Shown here: piece after piece, positions 25,076-41,155 of the stretch | How positions within the stretch are numbered: the stretch's first letter is position 1 | How the letters are laid out: every line of letters starts with the position of its first letter | Assembly (NCBI GenBank): GCA_963845565.1 | Contig: CAWJSJ010000002.1 | Span: forward strand, 2,048,001-2,112,000 | Source of the DNA: an uncultured Methylomirabilota bacterium | Lineage (GTDB): Bacteria > Methylomirabilota > Methylomirabilia > Methylomirabilales > 2-02-FULL-66-22 | Length of the DNA stretch: 64,000 nt | Reading direction: 5' to 3' | Made by a program: the position numbers and the translations under genes | The notes under the pieces: model-generated | Told to the model about the DNA's origin: nothing | Database searches by the model: none | What the model saw: only the letters and a program-made list of their open reading frames with translations

Positions 25076-25555
25076 TCAGGGGGTGAGATCAAGGGCGAGC
25101 GGGGGATGAACCGGGCGCAATTCCGTGTCCTCTGCATTGCCGACATCCCAGCGCAGCATGATGAATTTTCCCGGACCGTCCAGCACCGTGTGGGGTGCGT
25201 GCCACACGTTCGGGTGGTACGTGACGGCCTGATCGCCGTCCGCCACGAAAACGACCAGGCGATCGAGTTCGGGGTCGCCCGCCGCCGAGGAGGGGCAGAC
25301 GGCGACGAGGTACCGGGTCCCCTGCACCGGAACGAAGCTCTGCGACGAATATGGGTGGCGTTCGAGCGCATCGATCTGCCATGGTGGATTCGACGGCTTA
25401 CTGAGAAGAAAGGCCATATTGAGCGTCGCCTGTGGTCGGTAGTTCTTCAGCGTGGCGGCGAACTCTTGCCGTGGAACATCGTCACCGGCGGCCATCAGGA
25501 CTTGGCCGAACAGGGCGAACGCCTCTCGCGTCAACGGCTGCGTCGTGTGTGGCAC
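25076..25555 (-). CDS. allA: Ureidoglycolate lyase
   Basis: PLTREAFALFG, LERHPYSSQSFVP, YLVAVC, Q.VTY..NVWHAP motifs. Confidence 0.88.
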   Translation of the reverse strand: MPHTTQPLTREAFALFGQVLMAAGDDVPRQEFAATLKNYRPQATLNMAFLLSKPSNPPWQIDALERHPYSSQSFVPVQGTRYLVAVCPSSAAGDPELDRLVVFVADGDQAVTYHPNVWHAPHTVLDGPGKFIMLRWDVGNAEDTELRPVHPPLALDLTP

Positions 25556-25581
25556 GTTCCAACTCCCGTGACCGGCGATTC

Positions 25582-26910
25582 CTAGAGGTGCAGGCCGAGA
25601 TGTGCGAGCCAGCGCGCCGTCCGCAGGAGGCGGGCGTCGTCGCCCCTTCGCGCCACGAGCTGGACGCCCAGCGGCAACTCATCCGCACCATGGAGTAGCG
25701 GCATGCTGAGGGCCGGGATCCCGCACAGCGTCCAGATCGTGCAAAAGATCGGGCTGCCCGTGGCGTGGAGCCCGACTGGGGCCTCGCTGGGTGTCGCCGG
25801 CGTGAGCACCGCGTCGAAGCCGCCGAGCGTGTTGTCCAGGGCTTCGGCCAGTAGTGGAATCTGCTCCAGCGCTCGCAAGTAGTCTGTCGCCGGAACGGCC
25901 CGGCCGCGCTCGATGATCTCGCAGAGCGTGGGGCTCAGGCGGTCTTTGCCCGTGGAATACTCGGTATGGTAGTGGAGGGCCAGCTCCGGTTCCATGACCG
26001 TACGATGAACGGTGTGGGCTGTGTCGAAGGCGGACGAGAGAGAGATCTCGACCACCCGCGGACCGAGTTCGGCGATCAACTGCGCAAAGGCCTGCTGGGT
26101 GGCCTGACTGGCCTGGCTCCACACCGGGGTCTTGACGAAGGCGACCCGCGGTTCGGCCGGCGGATCCTGCGACGCGACGGCGAGGAGGTTCGGGCGCGAC
26201 GTTGGACGCATGGCGCGATCGCTCGGGTCGAACACCATGAGTTCCTGGGCAAGCACCGCCACGTCCTCCACGGTCCTGCCAAAGACCCCGATCTGATCCA
26301 GGGAGGGTGACTGCGTCAAGACGCCGTTGCGCGAGATGCGGCCAAAGGTCGGCTTGTATCCATAGACACCACAGTAGGATGCCGGCCGGATCACCGAACC
26401 GTTGTTCTGGCTTCCGGTGGCCAAGGGTGTCATGCGGGCCGCCACTGCGGCCGCCGACCCGCTGGACGATCCGCCGGGGGTGCGTCCAGGGTCGTGCGGG
26501 TTCTTCGTCTTGCCTGGCGCCACCAGGCCGAGCTCCGTACACACGGTCTTGCCAAGAATGATGGCCCCGGCCTGTCGAAGCAGCGAGACGACGGTTGCGT
26601 CCTTGGTGGGACGCCGACCTGCATGCAGGACCGTCCCGTTCTCGGTCGGCATGTCCGCCGTTTCAAAGACATCTTTGACCCCCACGGGAACACCGTGCAA
26701 CGGACCGAGGTCCCGTCCTTCGCTGCGCGCGCGATCCGCCCGGCGCGCCTGTTCCAGCGCGTACGACGGATCCAGGAACGCCCAGGCCTCGACTGTCCGA
26801 TCCGCCTCGGCGATCCGCGCCAGGGCAGCCCGAACCAATTCCTCGGAAGAGACGGACCCGTCCCGAACGCGCCTCGCCGCTTCGACCGCCGTCAATTCGG
26901 TTAGCGTCAC
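25582..26910 (-). CDS. Amidase-signature family amidase
   Basis: Own GTG start with AAGGAG SD; GPLHGVPVGVKD, TPGGSSSGSAA and GSQNNGSVIRPAS motifs. Confidence 0.9.
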   Translation of the reverse strand: MTLTELTAVEAARRVRDGSVSSEELVRAALARIAEADRTVEAWAFLDPSYALEQARRADRARSEGRDLGPLHGVPVGVKDVFETADMPTENGTVLHAGRRPTKDATVVSLLRQAGAIILGKTVCTELGLVAPGKTKNPHDPGRTPGGSSSGSAAAVAARMTPLATGSQNNGSVIRPASYCGVYGYKPTFGRISRNGVLTQSPSLDQIGVFGRTVEDVAVLAQELMVFDPSDRAMRPTSRPNLLAVASQDPPAEPRVAFVKTPVWSQASQATQQAFAQLIAELGPRVVEISLSSAFDTAHTVHRTVMEPELALHYHTEYSTGKDRLSPTLCEIIERGRAVPATDYLRALEQIPLLAEALDNTLGGFDAVLTPATPSEAPVGLHATGSPIFCTIWTLCGIPALSMPLLHGADELPLGVQLVARRGDDARLLRTARWLAHLGLHL

Positions 26911-26966
26911 AGCATTCTCCTTCGAGCCATTACATTGAGGGGCCACGAGCACGCCGACCAAGGCAG

Positions 26967-28143
26967 TTAGCGGGCGGTGGCCAAGTATTCCAGCGCGACC
27001 TGGACGCCGCCCTTCCGATGCGGTACCCCGGCGGCGGCCAAGTCCCATCTCGACGCCGCAGAGCGTTCCCGCAAGCATGAGGTCGTTGAAGTCGCCGAGG
27101 TGCCCGATGCGGAACGCCGTTCCCTTCAGCTTGCCCAGGCCGGTTCCGAGCGAGAGGTCGAATCGCTCCAGAATGATCCGACGGAGGGCATCGGCATCGC
27201 AGCCTGCAGGCATCAGGACTCCCGTCAACGCGCTGCTGTACTCGGCGGGATTCTTACAGACGATCTCGAGCCCCCACGACTGAACGGCGCGCCGAGTGGC
27301 CTCGGCATGCCGGTCGTGCCGTGCGAAAACATTCGCCAGGCCTTCCTCCTCCAAGAGATGCAGGGCCTCGCGCAAGGCGTAGAACAGGTTGGTCGCCGGC
27401 GTGTAGGGGAAGAATCCGGCCTGGTTGTCCTCGAGCATCGGCCCCCAGTTCCAGTAGGCGCGGGGAAGGCGCGCCTCTCGGGAGGCCGCCAGCGCCTTTT
27501 GACTGATGGCGTTCAGACCGAGGCCAGGCGGGAGCATCAGTCCTTTCTGGGAGCAGCCGATTGTGACGTCCACCCCCCATTCGTCATGGCGGTAGTCGAT
27601 GGAACCCAGCGAGGAAATGGTGTCCGCCAGGAGGAGGGCGGGGTGGCGGGCCCGGTCCATCGCCTGCCGGATCAGGGGAATGCGACTCGCCACGCCGGTC
27701 GAGGTCTCGTTGTGGACGACGCAGACGGCCTTGATGGCGTGCGTGCCATCTGCCGCGAGTCTGGCCTCGACCACGGCCGGGTCCACGCCGGTGCGCCAGT
27801 CGCCCGGCACGAAGTCCACGGACAGTCCCAGCCGCTCGGCGACACCCTTCCAGAGCACGGCGAAGTGGCCGGTCTCGAACATCAGGACCGTGTCGCCGGA
27901 CGAGAGGGTGTTCACGAGGGATGCCTCCCACGCGCCGGTGCCGGACGACGGATAGATGACGATCGGACCGTTAGTCTGGAAGATACGACGAAGGCCTGTG
28001 AGGACCTCCTTCGCCAACGGGGCGAAATCCGGTCCTCGGTGATCGATGGTGGGCGCGGCGAGCGCTCGGAGGACCCGCTCGGGGACATTGGTGGGGCCGG
28101 GGATTTGAAGGAAGTGACGTCCTGCGCTATGGGTGCGTGACAT
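26967..28143 (-). CDS. Class-V PLP aminotransferase (serine/alanine-glyoxylate, PucG-like), frameshift near 27038
   Basis: GRHFLQIPGPTNVP, HNETSTG, CSQKGLMLPPG, PYTP and FRIGHLG motifs. Removing one base gives ...LAAAGVPHRKGGVQVALEYLATAR then TAA at 26967. Confidence 0.88.
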
Positions 28144-28224
28144 GGTAGTCCCCTCCTGACTGCGATGTGGGCAGTTCCGCAGCGTCCTCGGGATGGCGAC
28201 CCGTGCAGCGACGGGGAGGGGGAC

Positions 28225-28260
28225 GACGGACGGGAGACCCGGATGGGTCTCCCGTCCGTC
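28225..28260. other. Perfect 16-bp stem intra-operon hairpin
   Basis: GACGGACGGGAGACCC ggat GGGTCTCCCGTCCGTC, with no U-tract. Confidence 0.7.
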
Positions 28261-28271
28261 GGGGAACACGA

Positions 28272-28892
28272 CTACAGCAATCGCCGCAAGAGCTCCGCTG
28301 CCCGCGTGGGGTTGAATACGCCGCAGACGCACGGTTTCGTCAGTTCGACGGCGGCCTCCTCGATGGTCAGCTTTTGCTGTTTCACCTTGGCGATCACGCT
28401 GTCCAGGAGCGCCACGGGCACCATCGCGTGACCGCACATCGTGTGAATGTCCAGCTTCTTCTTATCGGGAAGCAACTCGGTCTTGCCCCAGATGCCCAGC
28501 GAAAGCGCCGCGGTGTGGGGCGTGAGCTTCGCCTGGGCGCAGCAATCCTTGACCTCATCGAAGAGGCCGGTCACGATGACGGACATGCCCAGGTCGGCCT
28601 CTCGGATCTCCTTCAGGGACTTGATCAGGTTCTCCTTGTTGTCGAAGTGGGCATGAGCAATGGCTCCGTCCACCATCCGCTTGAAGACCTCTTCGGCGGA
28701 TCCCAAGAGGTACATGTCCCCCTGCTGCGTGTCGCCGATGTTGATCGGGTTGTGTTTCAGGCAAATTCGCAGGACGCCGACGAGCTTCTCGCGGGACCCC
28801 TTCAGGTTGGCGTCCTTCGTGGCCATGGCCATGAGCGTGTAGTCCGCCGCCTGATCGATCGGTGTTCCGGTGCGATGGAGTGTGTGTGTCAT
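28272..28892 (-). CDS. Uncharacterised Cys-motif protein, partner of the 4Fe-4S protein
   Basis: MTHTLHR N-terminus, DCC, TMCGH and CVCGVFNP motifs; 4-bp overlap (ATGA) with the upstream gene. Confidence 0.85.
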   Translation of the reverse strand: MTHTLHRTGTPIDQAADYTLMAMATKDANLKGSREKLVGVLRICLKHNPINIGDTQQGDMYLLGSAEEVFKRMVDGAIAHAHFDNKENLIKSLKEIREADLGMSVIVTGLFDEVKDCCAQAKLTPHTAALSLGIWGKTELLPDKKKLDIHTMCGHAMVPVALLDSVIAKVKQQKLTIEEAAVELTKPCVCGVFNPTRAAELLRRLL

Positions 28893-29614
28893 CGGAGTTC
28901 CTCCACGAACGCCGGCTTGGCGAGGCCGACATTGGTCTTGCCGCAAAGATAGGGTGTGTAGCCCAGACGCGCTAGCCGATCTTTGAAGACCAGGGAGCCG
29001 TCAGGGTAGACGCGCGAGGAGAGTCCGACGCTGAAGACTGTCTCCACTTCGCCGCCGACCTCCTTCAGTGCCGCCAGGACGGCCTCGAGTTTCTCGATGA
29101 GCACGTCCCCCTCCACGATGGCCGACAAGACGAATTCGCCCAAGATATCCTCCCGGAGCTTCCCGGTCTTGGTGTCCTTCATGACGTACGTGACGGGGTT
29201 CTTGGGCTCGAAGCTGATATGGGGGGCGAGGGCGATGCAGACCTTTTCCACATCCCGCATGCTGGTCCCGACACCCGGCCGGCCCAGCTCCACGCCAATG
29301 CCGAAATGGCCGTACCGGATGCGGCCCGTCACATCGTTGGTCTTCATCTCTGCGGTGCCGCGGCCCGAAACGCCGGTGCGGTTATCCACCGTGATCGGAT
29401 CGCTCATCGCTCGCCGGAAGCTCCGTGGCCACGCGAGATCCTCGGGCTCGAAGCAATCATACGGGCAACAGGGCATGCGGTAGCAGTTGTAGCACTCTAC
29501 GCAACGGTCCCGGTCGATCGTCGCCACGTCGTCGTCGCGAATGATCGCTTGGGTGGGACAGTAGACCGAGCACTTCTCGATACAACCCCTGCACTCCTCC
29601 TGGATGATTCGCAT
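28889..29614 (-). CDS. 4Fe-4S dicluster protein with an uncharacterised C-terminal domain
   Basis: CRGCIEKCSVYCP and CVECYNCYRMPCCP, then GRGTAEMKTNDVTGR, ELGRPG and KTNVGL. Confidence 0.88.
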   Translation of the reverse strand: MRIIQEECRGCIEKCSVYCPTQAIIRDDDVATIDRDRCVECYNCYRMPCCPYDCFEPEDLAWPRSFRRAMSDPITVDNRTGVSGRGTAEMKTNDVTGRIRYGHFGIGVELGRPGVGTSMRDVEKVCIALAPHISFEPKNPVTYVMKDTKTGKLREDILGEFVLSAIVEGDVLIEKLEAVLAALKEVGGEVETVFSVGLSSRVYPDGSLVFKDRLARLGYTPYLCGKTNVGLAKPAFVEELR

Positions 29615-29718
29615 GGATTCCCTCCTGTGCATTGCGGGGTCAACGCCCCAAGAACGGGTGGGTCGCCGATCCTTCCCCAAAGGAAAACTCGCCACGGCCA
29701 GATATTAAAGATGCACAC

Positions 29719-29759
29719 TTAATATCGAATTATGTATTATATGTCAAGAATTATTTATT
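29719..29759 (-). promoter_or_regulatory. Island promoter/operator P1 (Fe-S pair to allA operon)
   Basis: Minus strand AATAAATAATTC TTGACA TATAATACATAATTCGA TATTAA (17-nt spacer). Confidence 0.8.
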
Positions 29760-29867
29760 CAGAAAAGATCTTCCTCGAGTGTGTGCTGAGGGGTATCGGA
29801 CCGTGGCGTTGAGGACGCGCGGGGCTTCTCGATGTCGGGAGTTGGAAGCTGTCTGTGAAAAAGGCGA

Positions 29868-30722
29868 CTAGGACTGCGGCGGGGTCTGGCGGCGTGGCCA
29901 GCAGCCGGCATCAACCGCGGTTAGGAAGTCCAGTACGGTGCGATTGAAAAGGTCCGGCTCTTCCAGGTTGATGGTGTGTCCGGAGTTCGGGAAGGTCACC
30001 AACCCTGCTGCCGGAGCGTGTCGCTTGAGGAAGAGGCTGGGCTCGATCGCGGGTTCGTCCTCGTCTCCCACTAAAACCAGCACGGGGACATCCATCCCCT
30101 GGAAGCGATCTTGGAGGTCGTAGAAAGAGGGGCGGGTCAATTGCACGCCTCGGAGCGTCATGGCGCGGCCGACCGCCGACCCGGTCGCGAGGTAATCGTG
30201 GAACTCCTGCCAGCCCTGCGGGTCCTTTTGTTGGAACTGGACGCGGGTGGGGCCGCGCGAGTACGTCTCCGCCACGGCAGCCATTCCGTCCCGTTCCAAC
30301 CGCTCGGCCATGTCGTTCGTGATCTTCCGGAATGCGTCACGATCCGTGCCGCTGCCATATCCGCCGCCTGCCACCGTGAGTGAAAGAGCGCGGTCCGGAT
30401 AGGTGAGTCCGAACAGCAGCGTGGCGTAGGCGCCCATGGACAACCCGCAGACATGCGCCGCGGGGATGGCCAGATGATCGAGGACGCCCTTGATGTCGTC
30501 CACGGCCATCTGCTGAGTATATGTGGCGATGTCGGACGGAACAGCCGATGGCGGGTACCCGCGAGCGCCGAAGGTGATGACCCGATATCGGCGGGCGAAG
30601 AAGCGGACCTGGGGCTGCCAGCTTCGATGATCGCCCCCCCATTCGTGGGCAAAGATGAGAGGGCGCCCGTGTCCACACTCCTCGTAGTACAGGCTCACAC
30701 CGTTGATCTCGGCCTGTGGCAT
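29868..30722 (-). CDS. Alpha/beta hydrolase
   Basis: GLSMG nucleophile elbow, VGDEDE and SGHTINLEEP motifs. Confidence 0.9.
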   Translation of the reverse strand: MPQAEINGVSLYYEECGHGRPLIFAHEWGGDHRSWQPQVRFFARRYRVITFGARGYPPSAVPSDIATYTQQMAVDDIKGVLDHLAIPAAHVCGLSMGAYATLLFGLTYPDRALSLTVAGGGYGSGTDRDAFRKITNDMAERLERDGMAAVAETYSRGPTRVQFQQKDPQGWQEFHDYLATGSAVGRAMTLRGVQLTRPSFYDLQDRFQGMDVPVLVLVGDEDEPAIEPSLFLKRHAPAAGLVTFPNSGHTINLEEPDLFNRTVLDFLTAVDAGCWPRRQTPPQS

Positions 30723-30750
30723 CTTCTTCTCCGGCCAGGATGGCGAGACG

Positions 30751-31453
30751 TCACGCCGTGGGGTGCACGTCCGTCGTGGTGGCGCCGCCGCTCAGCAGCG
30801 CCTGGACCCGGCGGCCCGTCTCGCGGCTGTGCTCCATCAGCAGCCGCCCGAGGCGCTCGCCGTCCTTGGCTTCCAGCGCATCCAGGCTGTCGCGGTGCTC
30901 CTTGATGCCGCGGTCCCAATGCGACTGCGAGTGAATGGCCACGTAGCGGGCGCGCTGGATCTGCGACGCCAGCGTCGTGTAGGTGGCGAGCAGGACGGAA
31001 TTGCCTGAGAGGCTCGACCACGCTGCGATGGAATTGCCCGTTCATCTGGAAATATTCGACGCGATCCTTGCGGTCGTGAAGGCGCTCCATTTGAGTCAGG
31101 TGCTTGCGGAGACGCTGAATATCCTTGTCTTCGACGCGTGTGACGGCCAACTCGCCGGCGTACCGCTCCAGCCACGCCATCACGTCGAACAGTTCGCCGA
31201 CGTTCTCTCGCGTGATGGGCGCCACCCGCGGGCTACGATTCGGTACGAGCTCGATCAATCCCTCGGCTGCGAGAACCTTCAGCGCCTCGCGAAGCGGGGT
31301 CCGCGAGATCCCAAATCGTTCGCAGAGCTGTTTTTCGTCAATGCGCTCGCCGGGGGGCAACTCGTTATGTACGATGAGGTCGCGAAGTCTTTCGGTTAAT
31401 TGCTCGTGCAGCGGCGGCCGTACGAGCACGTCGGCGCTTCTCTCAGGTCCCAT
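30751..31453 (-). CDS. GntR (FadR/FCD) transcriptional regulator, frameshift near 31010
   Basis: HTH LCERFGISRTPLREALKVL; FCD FH...SGN...EH motifs continue in ORF 30751..30942. Confidence 0.9.
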
Positions 31454-31549
31454 GATCGGCTCCCAGGTGTGCGGCCGTCCGTCGATGTTCCGCGCGCTGG
31501 ATTCGGTGCAATGAAAACGCGACAACGACCTCGTATTTCGATCGTCCAC

Positions 31550-31578
31550 AATCTATCCGAGGTTCACCAGGATTTCAA
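31550..31578 (-). promoter_or_regulatory. Probable gntR promoter
   Basis: Minus strand TTGAAA-17nt-TAGATT. Confidence 0.6.
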
Positions 31579-31614
31579 GTATAAAAAATACAGAATTAAA
31601 TATGATAAAAAACT

Positions 31615-31643
31615 TGGACATATAATACATAATGATGTATTTT
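31615..31643 (+). promoter_or_regulatory. Island promoter/operator P2 (carbamate kinase operon)
   Basis: TGGACA TATAATACATAATGATG TATTTT; the spacer shares its first 13 nt with P1. Confidence 0.8.
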
Positions 31644-31724: not shown

Positions 31725-32693
31725 ATGACTCAGGCGTACGAGATCCCGGGGCGTCTGCTCATCGCCATCGGGGGCAATGCCATCCACCCGGGCGGCATCG
31801 CGGGGACGCCCCAAGAGCAGGTGGACATCGTTGCTGCGACCGCCCGTGCCTTGCTCCCCATCATGCAACTGAACAACGAGTTGATCGTTACGCATGGGAA
31901 CGGACCTGTTGTCGGGAAGATCCTGCTGCGGCAAACGCTTGCTCGCCATCGGGTGGTCCCGATGTCGCTGGACATCTGCGTGGCCCACAGCCAGGGGGGG
32001 ATTGCGTATCTGTTGATGCAGGCGTTCGAGAACGCGTTGCGTGAGGCGGACGATCAGCGCCACGTTGTCTGTCTGCTCACGCAAGTCGAAGTTGATCCCG
32101 AGGATCCAGGTTTTCGAAATCCCACCAAACCGGTCGGTTACTTTTACACGGAAGAGGAGGCTCGGGGAATCGCCACGGAGCTCGGCTGGACAATGCGAGA
32201 AGACGCTGGCCGCGGGTGGAGATTGGTCGTGGCGTCTCCGGAGCCGAAACACATTGTCGATATCTCCCTGATAGACGCGTTGGCGAAACGGGGCGCCGTC
32301 GTCATTGCCGGAGGTGGCGGCGGGATCCCGGTGATCCGCGGGCCAAAGAAGGTCCGCCATGGGGTCGAGGCGGTGATCGACAAGGATTTAACATCCGCGC
32401 TGATGGCTAACGTGCTCGGTATAGACGTGATGATGATCCTGACCGGCGTGTCGCGGGTCGCCATCGATTATCGGACGCCGCAGGAGCGCGACCTTGACCA
32501 TGTGACTGTTTCGGAGGCCCGGCGCTTGCTCAGGGAAGGACAGTTTCCGGCGGGCAGCATGGGGCCGAAGATCGAGGCCGCTGTTCGGTTTCTCGAACGC
32601 GGCGGCAAGCGGGCCATTATCGGTCACCTGAATGACGCCCTGCCTGCCCTCCGTGGCGAGACGGGGACCCACATCGTTCCCGATGAACACTGA
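31725..32693 (+). CDS. arcC: Carbamate kinase
   Basis: IAIGGNA, THGNGP, NPTKPVG, GRGWRLVVASP, GVEAVIDKD and GSMGPK motifs. Confidence 0.95.
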   Translation: MTQAYEIPGRLLIAIGGNAIHPGGIAGTPQEQVDIVAATARALLPIMQLNNELIVTHGNGPVVGKILLRQTLARHRVVPMSLDICVAHSQGGIAYLLMQAFENALREADDQRHVVCLLTQVEVDPEDPGFRNPTKPVGYFYTEEEARGIATELGWTMREDAGRGWRLVVASPEPKHIVDISLIDALAKRGAVVIAGGGGGIPVIRGPKKVRHGVEAVIDKDLTSALMANVLGIDVMMILTGVSRVAIDYRTPQERDLDHVTVSEARRLLREGQFPAGSMGPKIEAAVRFLERGGKRAIIGHLNDALPALRGETGTHIVPDEH

Positions 32694-33702
32694 GGCGCGC
32701 ATGCTCATGTCGGTATCGCCATCCTCGGCCAGGGCCGCTCTTCCGACGGCGATTCCCATCACCCGGCTCGGCCGTTTCGCGGCCGACGCGCTTCGAGCGG
32801 AGTCCCGGTGGGTGGTCCAGGCCGTTTTCCGCCGCAGCTTCTATTGCCGAAGTCAGGACGGGTCCTTCGTGTGCGTCGGCCCGATGTCGCTCGGCAGTGG
32901 GCCGCTGAATGTCCTTTGCCCGGTCCCCGAGCGGACCGACTGGGAGGCAGCCGGTCTCGCGCCGGGCTCCGCCGCAACGTGCGATGGCACATGGTTCCGC
33001 GTCGCGGAGCATTTCGCGTTTTCGCTGGTTGACGCCACGGTCTGGCGGCCCGCCACGCCGGCCACCCGGTGGCAACCGGCGACTATGCGCGCGAACCTGG
33101 TCGCGCTTTCGCGAGAGGCGCGCGCACGATCGGCGCGGGGAGGCCTGCAAGCGTTGGTGCCGTCGTTCGCCGGGAACGCGACCAACCTCGCGGATGGAGC
33201 GTCGGGCGCCGACCCCTTGAACCGGATGGCGCTCGGGGGCGCCGGACCCTTGGCGAGATGGCTGGAGGCGAGCCTCGACCGCGCCGAAGAGCGGATCCCG
33301 ATTCCGAGTGGGGCGATCACGGCGCTGGTCGGTCTCGGCCCGGGCCTGACCCCTTCCGGGGACGACTTTCTCGGAGGCGTGCTGGTGGCCCTTCGGCAGT
33401 TGGGTGCCGCGCGCGTCGCCGCGCGCCTCGCCGCCGCTGTGCTCTCCCATGCCGAGTGGGGCACGAACGACATCAGCCGCGCGCACCTCGCCGCAGCGGC
33501 TGGCGGAGAAGGCGCGGCCGCCCTGCACGGTCTCTTGATGAGCCTGTGCACGCCAGGCGCCCCCGGGATGCGCGACTGGGTGTCCGCGATCGAAACGATC
33601 GGGCATAGCTCCGGCTGGGATGCCGTGGCGGGGATATCCTTGGTGGCGGCCGGATTCGCGCGGGTCGGTCTCGCGCGTGATGGAGGGGCGGCAACGGCCT
33701 GA
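32683..33702 (+). CDS. DUF2877 protein (YlbF/AllH-like)
   Basis: LVGLGPGLTPSGDDFLGG, TNDIS and IGHSSGWD motifs. Confidence 0.88.
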   Translation: MNTEARMLMSVSPSSARAALPTAIPITRLGRFAADALRAESRWVVQAVFRRSFYCRSQDGSFVCVGPMSLGSGPLNVLCPVPERTDWEAAGLAPGSAATCDGTWFRVAEHFAFSLVDATVWRPATPATRWQPATMRANLVALSREARARSARGGLQALVPSFAGNATNLADGASGADPLNRMALGGAGPLARWLEASLDRAEERIPIPSGAITALVGLGPGLTPSGDDFLGGVLVALRQLGAARVAARLAAAVLSHAEWGTNDISRAHLAAAAGGEGAAALHGLLMSLCTPGAPGMRDWVSAIETIGHSSGWDAVAGISLVAAGFARVGLARDGGAATA

Positions 33703-33755: not shown

Positions 33756-33854
33756 GCCGTTGTCAAAGAATTATTTGACGGCAGAAATTCTGAAACGGCA
33801 TAAGGAGCCGTAACGAAATCGCAAGAAGTGGCCAAGTCATTTCGTAACGGCTCC
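33756..33854. mobile_element. MITE family A copy between DUF2877 and fdrA
   Basis: GCCGTTGTCAAAGAATT...AAACGGCA-TAA-GGAGCCGTAACGAAAT...ATTTCGTAACGGCTCC-TAA. Confidence 0.85.
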
Positions 33855-33868
33855 TAAGGAGAGGGCTC

Positions 33869-35389
33869 ATGGCGATACGTACGGAAATATTATCGTCTTT
33901 CTATCAGGATTCGGTCGTGTTCATGCGCATCGCGTCCCAGATCCGGACGCGGCCTGGGGTGCGGGAGGCGGCCGCGTTCATGGGGACGCCGTCGAACCAG
34001 GGCTTGCTGGAGCAGATCGGCCTGGCGACGGTCGAGAGCAAGGAGGCGCGTCCAAATGACCTGATTCTCACGGTGGACGCGGACAGCGATGCCGCGGCCG
34101 AAGCGGCGCTGGCGGCGGCGAAGGAACTGCTCGCCCAGCGGCGCCAGGTCAGCGAGTCGGCCGCGGAGGTGCGGCCCCGCACTTTGGAGTCGGCTCTCCG
34201 AATGCTCCCTGATGCGAACCTGGTCGCCATCTCGGTTCCGGGGGCCTACGCCAAGTTCGAGGCGATGAAGGCGATCAAGCATGGCCTGCACGTGTTCCTG
34301 TTCAGCGACAACGTGCCGGTCCAGGACGAGATCGAGCTCAAGACCGAAGCGGTGCGCCGAGGCGTCTTGTGTATGGGGCCTGACTGTGGGACAGCCTACC
34401 TGAACGGCATGGGGGTTGGCTTCACTAACGTCGCGCCGCGCGGACGCATCGGGTTCGTCGCTGCCGCGGGGACGGGGCTTCAGGCGGTGGTCTCCCGCGT
34501 CGCGGCGTTGGGAGAAGGTGTCTCGCATGGCATCGGCGTCGGCGGGCGGGATCTATCGTCCGAGGTCGGGGGAATGATGACGCTCTTCGCCCTGGAGGCG
34601 CTGGCGGACGATCCGTCCACCGAAGCCATCGTGATCATCTCGAAACCGCCACACCCGACGATCCTGCCGCGGCTGGAGGCGGCCATTGCGAAGATCCGGA
34701 AGCCGGTGGTGGCGTGCGTGCTGGGCGTACAGGCGCCGGCGCAGAGTGCGGCGACATGGGTCGATACGCTGGACGCCGCCGCGGATGCCGTCGTGGCGCT
34801 GATCGCCAAGCGGAACCTCGGGTGGGGGACGTTTTCGGATGTGTCCGGGATTCGCGCCCGTCTGGCCCGCCTCCAGGCGAAAGGTCCGATTGCCCCCGAG
34901 GTGTTCGGCCTGTACACGGGCGGGACGCTCGCGCATGAGACGCATCTGCTGCTCGATTCTCTTCTGGGACATGACGCTCGGCATCAGATCCTCGATCTGG
35001 GCGACGATCAATACACCGTGGGCCGGCCCCACCCCATGATCGATCCGCAGACTCGGACGGACATGATTCTCAAGGCGGGTCAGGAGAAGGCGGGGGTACT
35101 GCTTGTGGACCTGGTGCTGGGCCGAGGATCGCATCCCAATCCGGCAGCGCCTCTCGCGGCGGCGATACGCCAGGCATCCGCCATGGCCGCGGCGGCCGGT
35201 CGGCGGCTGATCGCGGTGGGGTCGGTTGTGGGAACCGCCGGGGACCCCCAGGACCTCGCGGGCCAGGTGGCCCAACTGGAAGAGGCGGGAGTCGAGCTTC
35301 TTCCATCCAACGCGGAGGCCGCCCGATTTGCCGCACTCCTGGTCAAGCCCGAGCTTGCCGAAACGCTCGCTGTGGAGGTGTCCCGATGA
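33869..35389 (+). CDS. fdrA: FdrA / AllF acyl-CoA synthetase-like protein
   Basis: YQDSVVFM, MGTPSN, ISVPGAYA, FSDNV, MGPDCGT, GVGGRDLS, DLGDDQYTVGRPHPMIDP motifs. Confidence 0.93.
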   Translation: MAIRTEILSSFYQDSVVFMRIASQIRTRPGVREAAAFMGTPSNQGLLEQIGLATVESKEARPNDLILTVDADSDAAAEAALAAAKELLAQRRQVSESAAEVRPRTLESALRMLPDANLVAISVPGAYAKFEAMKAIKHGLHVFLFSDNVPVQDEIELKTEAVRRGVLCMGPDCGTAYLNGMGVGFTNVAPRGRIGFVAAAGTGLQAVVSRVAALGEGVSHGIGVGGRDLSSEVGGMMTLFALEALADDPSTEAIVIISKPPHPTILPRLEAAIAKIRKPVVACVLGVQAPAQSAATWVDTLDAAADAVVALIAKRNLGWGTFSDVSGIRARLARLQAKGPIAPEVFGLYTGGTLAHETHLLLDSLLGHDARHQILDLGDDQYTVGRPHPMIDPQTRTDMILKAGQEKAGVLLVDLVLGRGSHPNPAAPLAAAIRQASAMAAAAGRRLIAVGSVVGTAGDPQDLAGQVAQLEEAGVELLPSNAEAARFAALLVKPELAETLAVEVSR

Positions 35390-35562
35390 GCATGCTGAAG
35401 ATCTTCGCCGAGCCGCTGCGGGTGATCAATATTGGGGTCGAGGGCTTCGCCGAGGATCTCAAGGCCGCCGGTGTGGAGGTCATTCAGCTCGACTGGCGCC
35501 CTCCGACGGGCGGGAACGCACGTCTGACTGCCCTGCTGGCCAGCCTGCAAGACGACGACTAA
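35386..35562 (+). CDS. Small FdrA C-terminal domain protein (58 aa)
   Basis: Manual translation: MSMLKIFAEPLRVINIGVEGFAEDLKAAGVEVIQLDWRPPTGGNARLTALLASLQDDD. GGAGG SD and ATGA overlap with fdrA. Below the ORF-track size cutoff. Confidence 0.88.
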   Translation: MSMLKIFAEPLRVINIGVEGFAEDLKAAGVEVIQLDWRPPTGGNARLTALLASLQDDD

Positions 35563-35664
35563 GATCCCCCGTACGCGTCCGAAGTCGTCTGTCGTCCCTG
35601 CTGCGGTGGCAGATTGCACCTCCGACAGTAGGGAGCCGACGGGCCGCCTTGGTGTTGCGACGCG

Positions 35665-36576
35665 TCAACGGGAAAAGGGATGATGCTGAATCCAGTGCCG
35701 GGCGATGTCGATCCGCCGGCAGGTCCAGACATCCGGATGCTGCGTCACATAATCGAGGAATCGCTCCAGGCCCGCCGCCCGTGACGGATGGCCGACAAGT
35801 CGCATATGGAGCCCCACCGACATCATCTTGGGTTGCGTCCTGCCCTCGCGGTACAGCAGATCGAAGCCATCCTTCAGGAACGTGAAGAAGTGATCGGCGG
35901 TGAAAAACCCTCCAACACCGAACTTCAGGTCGTTTGTGCTCAAGGAGTACGGCACGACGAGGTGCGCCGCTTCTCCGACCCGAACCCAGTATGGGAGTTC
36001 GTCGTTGTATGCATCAGAATCGTACAGGAAACCGCCCTCCTCGACAAGGAGTCGTCGGGTATTGATGCCCGGTCCATACCGGCAGTACCAGCCCAGCGGG
36101 CGCTGCCCCACGGTTTTTCCCAACGACTCGACGGCCAGACGTATGTGGCGACGCTCCTCTTCTTCGGACAACTCGAATTGCCTCACCCAGCGCCAGCCGT
36201 GGCTACAGACGTCGTGGCCGGCCTCGACGATGGCCTTGGCCGCCTCGGGGTTCCGCTCCAAAGCCAGAGCGCATCCGAACACCGTGAGGGGAAGACCACG
36301 CTCTCGAAAGATTCTCATGAGCCGCCAGAAGCCGACGCGGCTCCCATACTCGAACATGGACTCGGCGGCAAGGTCGCGGCCTCGGACCGTCTGGCCCGTT
36401 CCAGTGGCTTCGGTGAGCGTCGCTTCGGAAAACCCGTCCTCGTCCGGTACGGAATACTCGGAACCTTCCTCGTAATTCATCACAAAATTGAGCGCTAGAC
36501 GGGCATGGCGTGGCCAGCGAGGGTCAGGAGGATTGGCGCCGTAGCCGACGAGATCGCGGGGATAGCCGTTGGCCAT
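35665..36576 (-). CDS. puuE: Allantoinase PuuE (polysaccharide deacetylase fold)
   Basis: YPRDLVGYG, NYEEGSE, ESMFEYGSRVGFWR, SHGWRW, KMMSVGLH.RLVG and RIDIARHW motifs. Confidence 0.9.
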   Translation of the reverse strand: MANGYPRDLVGYGANPPDPRWPRHARLALNFVMNYEEGSEYSVPDEDGFSEATLTEATGTGQTVRGRDLAAESMFEYGSRVGFWRLMRIFRERGLPLTVFGCALALERNPEAAKAIVEAGHDVCSHGWRWVRQFELSEEEERRHIRLAVESLGKTVGQRPLGWYCRYGPGINTRRLLVEEGGFLYDSDAYNDELPYWVRVGEAAHLVVPYSLSTNDLKFGVGGFFTADHFFTFLKDGFDLLYREGRTQPKMMSVGLHMRLVGHPSRAAGLERFLDYVTQHPDVWTCRRIDIARHWIQHHPFSR

Positions 36577-36654
36577 GGGTTTCCCTCCGTGGCTTCCGAT
36601 GCCTCGGGAAGCGGCGCAGACTTCGACAACCGGACATGGGGCAAGGTAATTGAA

Positions 36655-37911
36655 CTACGCGGCGGAAACCGCCGTGGACCGCGCGGCCGCGAAAGCCTCC
36701 AGTGCCTTGACGAAGCATTCCATCGGTACTGCCGTGATGCCCGCGCCGATCTGGCCGACTCCAGGCCGGCGACACGCGATGCCGGTGTTGATGACTGGGG
36801 TGAAACCGGTCTCGACCACCTTTCGGATGTCGATTCCAAGCGGCGTACCTCGAAAGTTCAACGCGGGGATCTTGAAAGTGTCGTGTTCTCCCGCGGTGAT
36901 CTCGTAGGACCGCATGGTCGTTTCCACGGCCTTTTGGGGTGTCCCCCCTACGTACTGGACGATGGCCGGTGCGGCGGCCATGGCGCACGAACCCAATCCC
37001 ATGGTCTCGGTGATCGCCGAATCCCCGATGTCCGGATTGGCGTCGTCGGGGCCGAAGCCGGGGAAGTACACGCCCTCGATCTTGGGGGCCGGGGCAGTGA
37101 ACCATGTATCCCCCAGGCCGCTTACACGGATCCCGACCTCGGTGCCGTTTCGGGCAATGGTGGTGACGACGGTGGAATCCGGGATGCCGCTCCCCGCATC
37201 CAGCATCGCCTTGCAGCTCGGCATGACGCTGTTCAGGATGAAATGGCCAGACCCCTCGATAAAGGTGATGGCCTTGATGGCCTGCTCGGTGGACTTGGCC
37301 ACCGCTATGAGATGCGGGGCAAGTGCAAGGGTCAACAGGGAGTTGCTGGCCTTATTCCGGTTGTGCATCTCGTCACCCATCTGGACCGCCTGGGCAACGA
37401 GGTTCTTGATGTCAATTCCCCCGGAGCGACGGATCGCGTCGCGGAGTAATTGAGCCAGCTCGCTATTCATCCAGCGGAGCCGCTCCAACACGTCCGGCGT
37501 GTTTGCCCCGTGCCGCAAGACCTTGCCGATACCCTCGTACAGGTTGCAGTACGTCTCGATGTCGTGGACATCGTTCCGGATCACGTTGACCATCATGGAC
37601 GGGGTGGTGATCCCGGACATGGGGCCGCAGGCCCGGTGATTGTGCAGGGAATCGAAGTGCAGTGCCCCGCCGGCCGCCAAGGCCTCGGCTTCCTCCAGCG
37701 TCGTGGCCCAACCTTCGAACAGGCAGGCGCCGGCAATAGCCCCCTGCATGGGGCCGCACATCCTCTCCCAGGCGACCGGCGGCCCGGCGTGGAAGACGGA
37801 GCGATCGCCCATGCCGGGGATCACGTCCCGCGCCTTGCGGATGTCCACGAGCGTGGCCGTACTCTCCTGAATCCGTTTCACGCATTCCTTGTTCGCTGCC
37901 GAAATACTCAT
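36655..37911 (-). CDS. DUF1116 protein (YlbE/AllG-like)
   Basis: HAGPP, GPMQGA, MGDEMHNRN, ARNGTEVGI, DIGDSAITET, PVINTGIA and GQIGAG motifs. Confidence 0.93.
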   Translation of the reverse strand: MSISAANKECVKRIQESTATLVDIRKARDVIPGMGDRSVFHAGPPVAWERMCGPMQGAIAGACLFEGWATTLEEAEALAAGGALHFDSLHNHRACGPMSGITTPSMMVNVIRNDVHDIETYCNLYEGIGKVLRHGANTPDVLERLRWMNSELAQLLRDAIRRSGGIDIKNLVAQAVQMGDEMHNRNKASNSLLTLALAPHLIAVAKSTEQAIKAITFIEGSGHFILNSVMPSCKAMLDAGSGIPDSTVVTTIARNGTEVGIRVSGLGDTWFTAPAPKIEGVYFPGFGPDDANPDIGDSAITETMGLGSCAMAAAPAIVQYVGGTPQKAVETTMRSYEITAGEHDTFKIPALNFRGTPLGIDIRKVVETGFTPVINTGIACRRPGVGQIGAGITAVPMECFVKALEAFAAARSTAVSAA

Positions 37912-37962
37912 ACCGCCTCCAATGGATGTCAACAGGAACGCCCCGCCCGACGCTCCCGGGCT

Positions 37963-39246
37963 TTACATCTGCTTGGGCAGCCAGGTCACCAGCGCTGGGA
38001 ATTGTGTGAGGAGCAAGGTGAACAGCAACATGATGATGACGTATGGCCAGGCACCCTTGATGACGTCTTTCAGCGGACCGCCATCACGGCGTACCCCTTG
38101 AATGACGAACAGATTCATCCCGACCGGTGGAGTGATCATGCCGATCTCGCTCATGAGAACGATGAAGATGCCGAGCCAGATGGCGTCCCCGCCCACCGCG
38201 GTGACGATGGGGTACACGATCGGGATGGTGGCCACCTGCATGGCCAGGACGTCCAGGAAGCAGCCGAGAATCAGGTAAAACACGGTCAGAGCCAGGACGA
38301 GCATGTTGAATGACAACTGCATGTCCGTAACCACTTTCGTCATGGCCTGGGCCACACCGAGCATGCTCAATGCCAGGTTCAAGACGAAGGCGCCGGTGAT
38401 GATCAGGAGGATCATTCCAGTGAGCTGGGCCGTCCGGATGAAGCAGGGGTTGAGCATGGCGAAGGACAGGCGTCCCGCCTTCAACGCGAAACCTAAGGCA
38501 ACGGCGATCCCCAGGGCGGCCGCCTCGGTCGGCGTGGCGATTCCGAAGTAGATGCTCCCCATCACGATGGAGAACACGATCAACGGGGGAAGGAGGAGCG
38601 GGGTCGCCGCCAGACGCTCCTTCCAAGTGGCTTTTCGCTCCCTGCCGGTGGTGGGGCGCCGTATCGCTTCCATGAAGATGTACATACTGAAGCAGAGGGT
38701 GAGCAGGATGCCCGGAATCACCCCGCCGACGAACAGTTTGCTGATAGAGTTGTTGGTCAGACTGCCGTACACCAGCAGGGCGACGCTCGGGGGGATCAGG
38801 ATGCCCAGCGTGCCACCCGCCGCCAGCGAGCCCAGAGCCATGGGCTTGTCGTACCCCCGCTTGTCCAGCTCGGGCAGCGCCACCGTGCCGATGGTGGCCG
38901 CACACGCGACCGAAGAGCCGGTGGTGGCGGCGAAGAGGGCGCAGCAGCCGATGTTGCTGTGCAGGAGTCCACCGGGCAAGCCCGTGAGCCAGATGGAGAG
39001 TCCCTTGTACATCCCATCCGCAATGCCGCTCCGGAGCAGCAACTCTCCCATCATGATGAACACCGGGATGGCCGTCAGCATGTTTTCGTTGTGGACCCCC
39101 CAGATCACGCTCCCGATGGAATCCAGGAACGGCTGCCCAAAGGCGAGCCACCCCCCGGCCATCCCGAGGCTCATCATGATCGGTCCGATGGGGATGCCGA
39201 TCATCAGCAATGCGACCATGATCAGAAGACCGAGCAATACAGCCAT
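37963..39246 (-). CDS. dctM: TRAP transporter large permease
   Basis: AIPVFIMMG, GGTLGILIPPS, ATPTEAA and ITPPVGMNLF motifs. Confidence 0.95.
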   Translation of the reverse strand: MAVLLGLLIMVALLMIGIPIGPIMMSLGMAGGWLAFGQPFLDSIGSVIWGVHNENMLTAIPVFIMMGELLLRSGIADGMYKGLSIWLTGLPGGLLHSNIGCCALFAATTGSSVACAATIGTVALPELDKRGYDKPMALGSLAAGGTLGILIPPSVALLVYGSLTNNSISKLFVGGVIPGILLTLCFSMYIFMEAIRRPTTGRERKATWKERLAATPLLLPPLIVFSIVMGSIYFGIATPTEAAALGIAVALGFALKAGRLSFAMLNPCFIRTAQLTGMILLIITGAFVLNLALSMLGVAQAMTKVVTDMQLSFNMLVLALTVFYLILGCFLDVLAMQVATIPIVYPIVTAVGGDAIWLGIFIVLMSEIGMITPPVGMNLFVIQGVRRDGGPLKDVIKGAWPYVIIMLLFTLLLTQFPALVTWLPKQM

Positions 39247-39271
39247 GGCAGAGATCCTCTCCGTGAGCGGC

Positions 39272-39838
39272 CTAGAGGCGCCGCTTGGCGTCCTCGAGCT
39301 CTTCCTGAAGCTCTTCCCTGGCCGCCTTGGGCTCGAACTCCGAGGCCAACTGCGCGGTCTGGCCGCGCAAGAGTAGATAGGTAGCCCGACCGCCCAGCAG
39401 GACGGCCACGATGGCGAAGGCGACGATCCCTGCGTACCAGACCGTCTGGGGGTACTTGAGCGGAGTCGCCCAGGGGGTCGGAGCCGTGCTGTTGTACGCA
39501 AACGTGTCGCGGACCACCCCAAAAGACGCCCAGGCGAGCACCAAGGCGAACAGGGCGATGGAGGTCACGGAGATCCAGTTCAGGAGCGCCTGACCGCGCT
39601 GGGACAGGCGGTAGTGGATCACATCGATGCGCATGTGGTTGCGCCCGATCAGCGCCACGCAGAAGGAGAGACAGGCGCTGACCGCCAGGATGTATCCGCC
39701 GATCTCGTCGGCCCCCTGCATGGACCAGTTGAAGAGCTTCCTGGCCCCGACCTCGACGGTGACGAGCAGACCCAGGAGCATCGTCAGCCAGCCGAAAGTC
39801 AGGCCCAGGATGTCGGAGAGACGCTTCATGATTGGCAT
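39272..39838 (-). CDS. dctQ: TRAP transporter small permease
   Basis: Four TM segments; GADEIGGY, HMRID and TPLKYPQ motifs. Confidence 0.9.
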   Translation of the reverse strand: MPIMKRLSDILGLTFGWLTMLLGLLVTVEVGARKLFNWSMQGADEIGGYILAVSACLSFCVALIGRNHMRIDVIHYRLSQRGQALLNWISVTSIALFALVLAWASFGVVRDTFAYNSTAPTPWATPLKYPQTVWYAGIVAFAIVAVLLGGRATYLLLRGQTAQLASEFEPKAAREELQEELEDAKRRL

Positions 39839-39920
39839 GGTGCTCCTCGCGCGAAGCCGGGGCGCCACCGCCAGGAGGCCGGGTTGTGTCCCGGTGCTCT
39901 GGCGGTGGCGGAATCCAATC

Positions 39921-40967
39921 CTACTTGATGCCGGTGAGCGGGCCGAGGATCTCCTTCCACTTGGCCCCGCAGCCGGGCATGCTGCGCTCGCACACGGCGG
40001 ACCACGCCGGGAAAGAGATCTTGGCCACCGCATCCGAGAGCAATTTCTGGTCGGCTTCCGTGACCGGAACTTCCTTCATCTTGAATTTGTTGACGGTCTT
40101 GCAGGGTTCCTTCCCGACATTGCAGCGCACCGCGTCGAGGAAGATCTCCTCGGAATAGGCCCAGATGTCCTTGTTCAGGCCGTCGATAGCGGTCTGGAGC
40201 TTCTTCTGGTTCTCGGCGCCCAGCTTCTGCCAGCTATTCAGGTTCATGATGTATCCGTTGAACCCGACCTGGAAGCCGATCGGCATGAAATACTCGGACA
40301 CCTCCGGCCAGCCGGCGGTGTTGGCGGAACTGGGACCGGTGATGGCGCACTCGACCACGCCCCGCGCCAGCGCCTGCTGCGTTTCGGAGAAGCCGACGGA
40401 AACCGGAATGGCGCCGAGGCTCTCGATGAACTGGGCCAGGCTCTGATCGTAGACGCGCACCTTCATGCCTTTGATATCGCGCAGTCCCTTGATCTCCTTC
40501 TTGCAGAAGAGAACCTGGGGTCCGAAGGGCCACAAGCCGAGCAGGCGGGAGTTGAACTTCTCCTGGATCACCTTGTCGAAGTGCGGAGAGTAAAGGTCGT
40601 ACACCTTACGCGCCATCTTGTAGTCGGGAACCAGGCCAACGATATCTTGACCGAGGAGGAACGGCTCGTCACGAGCGGCCTGCGCCGCGCGCAAGGAGAC
40701 GATGTCGAAGAGCCCGGTCTTCGACAGGCGGAGGGTTTCCTCGGATTTCTGACCGGTGACGTCGATGGGCTTGTAGTTCACCGTGGCCTGGATCCCGGTA
40801 TTCTTGGCGAAGTTCTCGAAGAACGGCTGCTCCTTGTTCTTCTGGATCAATCCGGTGGCGATAGGTTGTCCCAGAACATTGAGGGAGATTTCGCCGGCGA
40901 CGGCGGCGCCGGTCAGGACGCTTGCGCCCAGCAACAGAACGAGTGCGGTCCACAGCAGTCGCTTCAT
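39921..40967 (-). CDS. dctP: TRAP transporter substrate-binding protein
   Basis: Signal peptide; DIKGMKVRV and QALARGVVECAIT motifs; CAGGAGG SD. Confidence 0.92.
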   Translation of the reverse strand: MKRLLWTALVLLLGASVLTGAAVAGEISLNVLGQPIATGLIQKNKEQPFFENFAKNTGIQATVNYKPIDVTGQKSEETLRLSKTGLFDIVSLRAAQAARDEPFLLGQDIVGLVPDYKMARKVYDLYSPHFDKVIQEKFNSRLLGLWPFGPQVLFCKKEIKGLRDIKGMKVRVYDQSLAQFIESLGAIPVSVGFSETQQALARGVVECAITGPSSANTAGWPEVSEYFMPIGFQVGFNGYIMNLNSWQKLGAENQKKLQTAIDGLNKDIWAYSEEIFLDAVRCNVGKEPCKTVNKFKMKEVPVTEADQKLLSDAVAKISFPAWSAVCERSMPGCGAKWKEILGPLTGIK

Positions 40968-41114
40968 GGAGTGCCTCCTGTTGAAAAGAGTGGCGGGCCT
41001 GAAAAAGGGGAAACGCAAACGCGTCCCCGGAGTGCGACAGGGGTTTCGAGGTGCGGTGAAGCAGTGTGCAGGTCCGGTCCCATATGATGCGTACTCCGGA
41101 CGAAGGTTGAAGAG

Positions 41115-41155
41115 AGAATATGTAATATTGTATTATGTGTCAAGTATTATTTATT
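41115..41155 (-). promoter_or_regulatory. Island promoter/operator P3 (TRAP-DUF1116-puuE operon)
   Basis: Minus strand AATAAATAATAC TTGACA CATAATACAATATTACA TATTCT; 25 of 27 bases match P1. Confidence 0.8.

Follow-up and report, generated by a model that had tools for sequence, protein, structure and literature searches.

In E. coli, AllFGH reversibly converts oxalurate to oxamate and carbamoyl phosphate, and the users of this enzyme named in the same study are urease-negative hosts (PMC11326118). Relatives of AllF, AllG, and AllH occur together with a carbamate kinase in a gene island at positions 25076 to 41155 of a 64,000-nucleotide stretch of DNA, hereafter the window (G000:C2:2048001-2112000), from an uncultured Methylomirabilota bacterium whose 5.36 Mb genome is assembled in six contigs (98.72% completeness, 6.43% contamination). 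The island is a variant of known ureide catabolism. It is read here, tentatively and with a confidence that falls a little short of even, as a GntR-controlled, two-branch module for the scavenging of lower ureides, a co-regulated block that probably imports small acids from purine breakdown, strips their nitrogen, and makes some ATP. The module is real, conserved, and undescribed as far as literature searches reach; no description of the gene set was found in these searches, whose coverage left out most subscription papers and all supplements.

In the proposed scheme, in which all substrates are predicted, a tripartite ATP-independent periplasmic (TRAP) transporter would import an open-chain N-carbamoyl C2 carboxylate, either oxalurate or ureidoglycolate or both, with allantoate a further possibility. 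The AllF/G/H-like complex would phosphorolyse oxalurate to oxamate and carbamoyl phosphate, from which carbamate kinase would produce ATP, CO2, and NH3, and an amidase resembling malonamidase E2 (MAE2) would hydrolyse oxamate to oxalate and NH3. A second branch would run alongside, with an AllA-like lyase freeing glyoxylate from ureidoglycolate and an aminotransferase of the serine-glyoxylate aminotransferase (SGAT) type converting it to glycine. A PuuE paralogue, PuuE', would open the rings of hydantoin-type precursors (parabanate, 5-hydroxyhydantoin, or allantoin) and would be exchangeable, its place taken in other clusters by a D-hydantoinase or by no enzyme at all. Parabanate hydrolyses to oxalurate at neutral pH (PMC5703782). 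In its favor, the scheme asks of no enzyme a role other than that of its nearest characterised relative. Moreover, urease, full urea carboxylase, and AtzH/HpxZ were not found in the genome, so that phosphorolysis would be its way to recover ureido nitrogen.

Gene identities derive from Pfam and NCBIfam profile scans and from pairwise comparison with the E. coli All and Yah proteins. These analyses bear out the gene content named in a first-pass annotation of the sequence, except for an Fe-S pair with no Pfam or NCBIfam match, and agree with it that no AllB, AllC, AllD, or AllE gene lies in the island. The genes form four units, dctPQM-allG-puuE' (minus strand), carbamate kinase-allH-fdrA-small open reading frame (ORF) (plus), gntR-hydrolase (minus), and FeS1-FeS2-aminotransferase-amidase-allA (minus), that is, three transcription units plus gntR, convergent and linked by a single shared motif. 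In window coordinates, the features are as follows.

25076..25555, minus: AllA-like cupin of the ureidoglycolate lyase family, divergent (PF04115, 109.5 bits)
25582..26910, minus: amidase-signature enzyme, MAE2-like (MAE2 the best PDB match), a putative oxamate amidohydrolase
26967..28143, minus: class-V aminotransferase, SGAT/BhcA type (extra base near 27040, an assembly error)
28272..28892, minus: Cys-motif protein encoded second in the Fe-S pair (N-domain ferredoxin-like; MCGH and CxCG invariant)
28889..29614, minus: 4Fe-4S-binding protein, first gene of the Fe-S pair (Cys motifs, Fer4-type look-alikes)
29733..29747, minus: putative shared operator/promoter motif, copy 3 (genome motif scan)
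29868..30722, minus: alpha/beta hydrolase, accessory (PcaD/RutD-like, under cut-offs)
30751..31453, minus: GntR/FCD regulator (extra base near 31011, an assembly error)
31615..31629, plus: putative shared operator/promoter motif, copy 1 (genome motif scan)
31725..32693, plus: carbamate kinase (NF009007, 330.6 against a cut-off of 266; TIGR00746, 352.6, below 358.25)
32701..33702, plus: AllH/DUF2877 (PF11392, 73 bits)
33756..33857, no strand: dispersed hairpin repeat of ~100 bp, not island-specific (188 near-full-length genome copies; hairpin fold)
33869..35389, plus: FdrA/AllF-like protein, short YahF-type form (NF004760, 453 against 433)
35386..35562, plus: free-standing 58-aa domain homologous to the AllF C-terminus and YahG N-terminus (sequence comparison)
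35665..36576, minus: PuuE', PuuE-family ring-opening amidohydrolase of a non-canonical WYCRYGP clade (TIGR03212, 409.9, below 424.6)
36655..37911, minus: AllG/DUF1116 (PF06545, 288.7 bits)
37963..39246, minus: TRAP DctM (TIGR00786, 323 against 268)
39272..39838, minus: TRAP DctQ (ORF between dctP and dctM, position kept in related loci)
39921..40967, minus: TRAP DctP with invariant Arg171 (NF037995)
41129..41143, minus: putative shared operator/promoter motif, copy 2 (overlaps a TTGACA-17-TATTCT promoter match)

The island constitutes one regulon. Three copies of the 15-mer TTGACATATAATACA are present in the genome at up to two mismatches, upstream of the carbamate kinase gene, dctP, and FeS1; with one position relaxed to C/T, the genome contains four sites at up to two mismatches and 20 at up to three. 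Of 30 related loci scanned, 9 have similar words ahead of dctP or of the gntR-linked unit. A -35 consensus accounts for six of the motif's 15 bases, and the motif is a putative GntR binding site. An allC or allD gene elsewhere under the same control, a prospect raised in the first-pass annotation, did not emerge: the motif is absent, at up to four mismatches, within 400 nt of all 11 dispersed ureide-related genes or operons scanned.

The assembly as deposited reads the aminotransferase and amidase as a single 951-aa ORF and shifts the frame of gntR. Intact orthologues place one surplus base in the aminotransferase (near 27040) and one in gntR (near 31011), and contigs of sequencing runs X1, X5, X7, and X18, the last an RNA run, were compared with the island. 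The base at 27040 is absent from X1, X5, and X7 contigs (in X5 at about half of the depth), X18 being without the deletion; the base at 31011 is absent from X1 contigs. Intact orthologues and run contigs therefore rule out an aminotransferase-amidase fusion, and the appearance of a gntR pseudogene is dismissed as an assembly error on the strength of run X1 only. Five of 90 testable genes are frameshifted in the assembly. An X7 contig spans the puuE'/allG junction, and X18 contigs cover the Fe-S pair, allG, and dctMQP, contigs alone being no proof of transcription. The island has 63.7% GC, lower than its left flank (68.5%) and near its right (65.0%). It is bordered by an M23 peptidase gene and secA, and because these two adjoin directly in the congener G012, the island is an insertion at this site. 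The hairpin repeat within it has copies on all six contigs, three of them in the window, is MITE- or REP-like, and shows very high contig depth in runs X1, X5, X7, and X18.

Recurrence was surveyed in 80 AllG-anchored and 80 DctP-anchored loci, and the cluster, on whose recurrence the first-pass annotation had staked its proposal, is found in other genomes. The 10 closest AllG loci (63-73% identity; some cut by contig ends, and L020, L022, and L024 near-identical) carry FdrA in nine cases, the amidase in nine, DctP in eight, the aminotransferase and the AllA-like gene in seven each, and carbamate kinase in five, and are labelled Rhodospirillales, Burkholderiales, Desulfobacteraceae, and Ramlibacter lithotrophicus. 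The core (TRAP, AllF/G/H-like proteins, carbamate kinase, amidase, aminotransferase, AllA-like protein, and GntR) is present in Alpha- and Betaproteobacteria and in Desulfobacteraceae. Among 40 relatives, DctP was found in G012 only, which holds fdrA, carbamate kinase, gntR, the hydrolase, the Fe-S pair, the amidase, and dctPQM-allG. The Ramlibacter module lies ~7 kb from a cluster of puuD, 5-hydroxyisourate hydrolase (HIUase), puuE, 2-oxo-4-hydroxy-4-carboxy-5-ureidoimidazoline (OHCU) decarboxylase, and M20 genes; its racemase-like gene was down-weighted as evidence for an allantoin racemase because it is without the cysteines. L024 contains two tandem carbamate kinase genes. At L143, with the same secA neighbor, an ABC transporter and a D-hydantoinase follow allG in the position of the window's puuE'.

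The DctP-anchored loci split into a window-like class A and a sister class B. Class B shares the TRAP transporter and the aminotransferase and adds a dihydropyrimidinase/D-hydantoinase above cut-off, a different amidase, a FAH-family protein, and racemase-like and HIUase-like genes; the minimal set in S. meliloti comprises aminotransferase, TRAP, amidase, FAH, and racemase-like genes. Forty DctP-anchored loci include FAH in 17, AllG in 12, and AllA-like genes in 10, with FAH never alongside AllG or AllA-like genes, a pattern and not a statistical test, since the loci are partial and related. The aminotransferase is present in 22 of these 40, in both classes. L136 and most of L019 are absent from the counts built on the cluster-annotation survey of DctP-anchored loci. 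The exclusion of FAH and AllG predicts a hydrolytic substitute, and the class B FAH-family protein (L153-L204, L322-L324) is a candidate oxalurate hydrolase or ureidoglycolate lyase. For a FAH-family ureidoglycolate lyase from Burkholderia, the literature search found no paper. In class B, the genes gcl-hyi-glxR stand beside this DctP family, in 2 of 31 long loci, which points to a C2 product. On isolate plasmids, this DctP adjoins uraD, HIU hydrolase, hydantoin racemases, and hydA/dihydropyrimidinase. Cysteine-free hydantoin-racemase-like and AMDase-like genes also accompany this TRAP family (L028:4459-5259, L322/L323). Arg171 of DctP is retained in 42 of 42 aligned sequences; solved relatives are weak (best 58 bits), and no ligand can therefore be read from them.

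The predicted phosphorolytic core is complete in the island, with the AllF, AllG, and AllH families and carbamate kinase all present. FdrA has a short, YahF-like form (40% identity to AllF, 37% to YahF) and is followed by a separate 58-aa ORF, whose homologues occur free or fused in 69 of 80 AllG loci. AllG is 45% identical to E. coli AllG and 47% to YahG, and carbamate kinase 46% to YahI and 40% to YbcF. A quick 40-row tree places the window AllG in a 100-support clade of class A clusters, which is weakly (87, long branch) nearer to E. coli AllG than to YahG. Sampled AllGs linked to Mo-hydroxylases, cyclases, or barbiturases fall outside the group of class A and E. coli AllG, mostly with YahG, and these Mo-hydroxylase, cyclase, and AtzD markers were found in none of nine module loci tested. 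The AllFG homologues that do accompany Mo-hydroxylase, cyclase, and AtzD/barbiturase genes (L043-L097) hint at an oxidative breakdown of pyrimidines that would pass through ureidomalonate and yield ATP. Elsewhere in the genome, a second allG without fdrA (L003, G000:C2:1143585-1146064) adjoins a cytosine-deaminase-like amidohydrolase and an ABC transporter, and tandem allG copies with similar deaminases occur in L040, L044, L059, and L064.

The amidase had been proposed to hydrolyse allantoate, an assignment with which its relatives sit poorly. Its closest PDB sequence is MAE2 (208 bits), a likeness that fits oxamate better than allantoate, and a fold search returned MAE2 and AtzE as top matches at nearly equal E-value; in the model, the active-site loops have predicted local distance difference test (pLDDT) values below 50. 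NCBIfam scores, computed on the fused 951-aa ORF, fall below the cut-offs for AtzE (237 against 461), TIGR02715 (224 against 426), and allophanate hydrolase (170 against 511). Within the phylum, 124 of 251 genomes encode the family, as do 32 of 301 in Ramlibacter's order; its members adjoin a different DctM in 46 of 59 loci and are common beside other TRAPs where ureide genes are lacking. A general hydrolase of small amide acids, acting on oxamate, is the simpler reading. The TRAP next to most other homologues of the amidase is presumably of the 2-oxo-acid (TakP) type; NCBIfam gave generic DctP only, and the point is not used here. A glyoxylate-reductase-like neighbor occurs in five loci and allH in two, the allH-amidase pair being found in G655 and G656.

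The aminotransferase, previously cast as a PucG/HpxJ equivalent that makes oxalurate, is by its sequence of the serine-glyoxylate/BhcA type, as the caveat attached to that proposal had anticipated. It scores 350 bits against plant SGAT, 143 against PucG, and 106 against HpxJ, and 422 against BhcA model NF045640 (cut-off 650), with no bhcBCD genes in the island. It has the motifs DHR and FFPYTP (PYT), not GQF and NHHTE. The latter pair, which we take to define PucG and HpxJ, is seen in the 3ISL alignment and in L012 and L284. A 44-row tree separates the window enzyme from GQF/NHHTE enzymes at 100/100 and intermingles it with FAD-oxidase-linked homologues, long branches limiting the deep joins. 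A genuine HpxJ orthologue is encoded elsewhere in the genome (C2:1376834, 524 bits to 3NNK), and HpxJ is present in 2 of 11 module genomes. His-Arg occupies the site of Tyr35-Arg36 in plant AGT1 and of Gln-Phe in PucG, and AGT1 accepts asparagine (PMC6797613). As asparagine would be a carbon analogue of ureidoglycine, activity of the island enzyme on the latter is possible.

PuuE' likewise fits poorly as the entry enzyme for allantoin that it had been taken to be. Scoring 409.9 against TIGR03212 (cut-off 424.6), it is a non-canonical paralogue with the pocket motifs WYCRYGP and TLTE, where canonical PuuE has WYTGR and F-L-S-E; its clade is separate from the WYTGR enzymes, which flank puuD, HIUase, and OHCU decarboxylase. 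Alignment to 3CL6 shows that NYEEG, SHGWRW, and GLH are kept, containing the Glu, His, and Trp residues that we take to be catalytic. None of the 80 AllG loci contains a PuuE gene, the two found among 80 DctP loci are of canonical type, and PuuE' was not found in G012 or in any of 20 congeners. In 16 of 56 loci fetched with PuuE', it adjoins an AllA-like gene, often in a minimal ABC-allA-puuE' operon, and just 2 of 20 wider regions have allC-like genes nearby, which together suggest that its product would feed AllA directly. The AllA-like protein of the island is 31% identical to E. coli AllA, retains the ERH and WH motifs, and, with 109.5 bits to PF04115, misses all NCBIfam AllA cut-offs (84.5 against 230 and 82.8 against 160). 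The minimal operon of SBP_bac_8 ABC transporter, allA-like, and puuE' genes (L297-L314) is found in many genomes without allantoate enzymes and may serve the breakdown of some hydantoin different from allantoin.

The remaining ureide genes are dispersed. The genome contains one AllB-family gene above cut-off (393.8 against 357.85), three M20 carbamoylases, of which one exceeds the cut-off of a broad allantoate-amidohydrolase model and none that of the AllC equivalog (best 272, cut-off 598), and 12 AllD-like matches at 28-34% identity, one of which was scanned (244, below the AllD cut-off of 496); no AllE above cut-off was found. With controls working, scans of the genome gave no match for HIU hydrolase, OHCU decarboxylase, or PuuD, classical uricase and HpxO not being among the searches; searches for allantoicase and AtzD (PF09663) gave no match with silent controls and so do not show absence. 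On contig C4, a canonical puuE adjoins an HpxA orthologue, within a cluster (G000:C4:77730-88007) that also encodes a peptide-type ABC transporter and a deaminase-like amidohydrolase; the tail of this puuE is apparently displaced by ~6 kb. Canonical PuuE is above cut-off elsewhere in 6 of 10 module genomes, and M20 carbamoylases, a broad family, in 11 of 11. The puuE, hpxA, M20, and hpxJ genes make a dispersed Hpx-like route to oxalurate possible in this genome, outside the island motif, which could supply the module with additional oxalurate.

The alpha/beta hydrolase and the Fe-S pair, which the first-pass annotation had listed in the block, are accessory, being present in 2 and 0 of 80 AllG loci, respectively. 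The second Fe-S gene has 2016 homologues, none named among 120 listed; its model (pLDDT 93) has no Foldseek match at E<=0.001 and a best Z of 5.1, which is no evidence of a new fold. The pair lies under the island motif and is seen also in L011, L229, L230, and L231, and G012 has one copy in its island and another beside a TRAP and an orthologue of the window aminotransferase. Speculatively, the pair might replace the FAD/Fe-S oxidase that adjoins this aminotransferase in L320 and L321.

Several points weigh against lower-ureide scavenging by two branches. AllF, AllG, and carbamate kinase are roughly equidistant from the E. coli All and Yah paralogues. Other AllG loci adjoin a cyclase in 27 of 70 cases, a Mo-hydroxylase in 23, and AtzD/barbiturase in four, and nitrifiers carry allFGHK next to biuret/triuret genes (PMC12625717); AllFG does not, therefore, imply oxalurate. 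Urea, a product of AllA, apparently cannot be used by this genome, and no island gene joins the branches, AllD being absent. Since no more than 2 of 11 module genomes have HpxJ, the majority have to take up oxalurate or produce it by another route. Finally, solved MAE2 structures are complexed with malonamate or malonate, not oxamate. These family contexts and the malonamidase likeness would suit another acyl ureide, either a (5-substituted) barbiturate or ureidomalonate, degraded via malonamate to malonate by the amidase, or an oxidised-guanine product such as guanidinohydantoin. We consider this unlikely. The class B ring-opener does pass dihydropyrimidinase cut-offs, the PuuE' pocket is altered, and enzymes yet to be identified have been proposed to act on hydantoins from oxidised guanine (PMC12623156), but the Mo-hydroxylase, cyclase, and AtzD markers are missing from all nine module loci tested, the genome has no PF09663 match (control silent), the island has no malonate-use genes, and the AllA-like, SGAT, and gcl genes point to glyoxylate.

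The self-contained route originally proposed, in which PuuE' opens allantoin, the amidase converts allantoate to ureidoglycine by taking off a single ureido group, transamination with glyoxylate by the SGAT-type enzyme then makes oxalurate, and AllFGH with carbamate kinase yields ATP, seems unlikely. It leaves no conserved gene of either class without a role, the minimal S. meliloti set included, and HpxJ is missing from 9 of 11 module genomes; AtzE scores near MAE2 in the amidase fold search, and plant AGT1 accepts asparagine (PMC6797613), the presumed ureidoglycine analogue. It requires, however, two new activities, one from an aminotransferase without PucG/HpxJ motifs that mixes with FAD-oxidase-linked homologues and one from an amidase family abundant in the phylum (124 of 251 genomes) and mostly beside another DctM (46 of 59 loci); M20 carbamoylases, broad as that family is, are above cut-off in 11 of 11 module genomes, and PuuE' is not conserved with the module. 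What stands of that proposal is a ureide-type carbamoyl-phosphate/ATP module without local AllC, AllD, or AllE, recurrent and in a urease-negative genome; its stepwise allantoin route is not supported. Double phosphorolysis, by which the AllFGH-like complex would split allantoate and, after transamination, oxalurate, for two ATP per allantoate, with the amidase finishing oxamate, appears very doubtful. It would explain why AllC, AllE, and Alc are missing from the regulon, leaves the amidase its MAE2-like role, accommodates the tandem kinases of L024, and has a precedent for allantoate phosphorolysis in Rubrobacter UGTCase beside carbamate kinase (PMC4016543). Yet UGTCase resembles ATCase and has no relation to AllFGH, the SGAT-type enzyme would still have to act on ureidoglycine, and the accessible part of PMC11326118 reports no AllFGH activity on allantoate. 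A broader self-sufficient pathway is also improbable, in which one AllFGH-type complex takes allantoate and then oxalurate (two ATP) with an SGAT-clade ureidoglycine aminotransferase and a malonamidase-type enzyme finishing oxamate, sister clusters are hydrolytic with a FAH-family oxalurate hydrolase replacing AllFGH and carbamate kinase, and the PuuE'/AllA-like pair handles non-enzymatic urate and guanine oxidation products.

The assignment of AllFGH is as recent as 2024 and was made in E. coli, and a distinct clade of it stands here in an import-and-degrade module of unrelated environmental bacteria. If lower-ureide scavenging is the true function, ATP-yielding ureide breakdown and purine cross-feeding reach beyond enteric bacteria. 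The clusters offer candidates for several orphan functions: a TRAP that would bind ureides, an oxamate hydrolase of the amidase-signature type, and a member of the FAH family acting on oxalurate or ureidoglycolate. They also bear on what substrate is used by a widespread PuuE paralogue that currently carries the annotation allantoinase. Class A is carried by the named isolate Ramlibacter lithotrophicus and class B by isolates of Defluviimonas, Salipiger, and S. meliloti.

Among the closest described systems is the oxamate branch of E. coli allantoin catabolism (AllD, AllFGH, AllK/YbcF; PMC11326118), with which the island shares AllF/G/H and carbamate kinase, a urease-negative host, and an AllA-family gene for the glyoxylate branch. 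It differs in its 40-45% identity, in an AllF split in YahF fashion, and in the absence of AllB/C/D/E and of AllR/AllS, and it adds TRAP import, GntR control, an amidase, an SGAT-type aminotransferase, and convergent units. E. coli yahEFGI, of unknown function, has the same short FdrA and is slightly nearer than the All set (AllG 47%, carbamate kinase 46%), whereas the window AllG does not group with YahG in the tree and the island is without YahD and YahJ. Rubrobacter UGTCase with carbamate kinase offers a parallel in ATP-yielding ureide phosphorolysis without allantoate amidohydrolase, through an ATCase-like family and another gene set (PMC4016543). The aminotransferase resembles plant AGT1/SGAT (6PK1) at 350 bits, with His-Arg at the Tyr35-Arg36 site, and differs from BhcA in falling under the cut-off, in lacking bhcBCD, and in its placement in ureide-linked clusters. 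Bradyrhizobium MAE2 (1OCK) is the best sequence and fold match of the amidase, with the catalytic Lys, Ser-Ser, and next Arg aligned, at 33% identity and with GTQTGGS where the island clade has G[ST]Q[TN]NGS; the alignment of amidase homologues leaves out L233. The Klebsiella hpx and Bacillus puc systems (HpxA, HpxB/PuuE, HpxK/PucF, HpxJ/PucG, HpxW/Y) share the overall chemistry via oxalurate and oxamate, and HpxA, canonical PuuE, and HpxJ orthologues are present in this genome, outside the island. The island aminotransferase and PuuE' are not those orthologues, HpxK is absent from the island and AtzH/HpxZ from the genome, and oxalurate, in the scheme favored here, would be phosphorolysed rather than hydrolysed.

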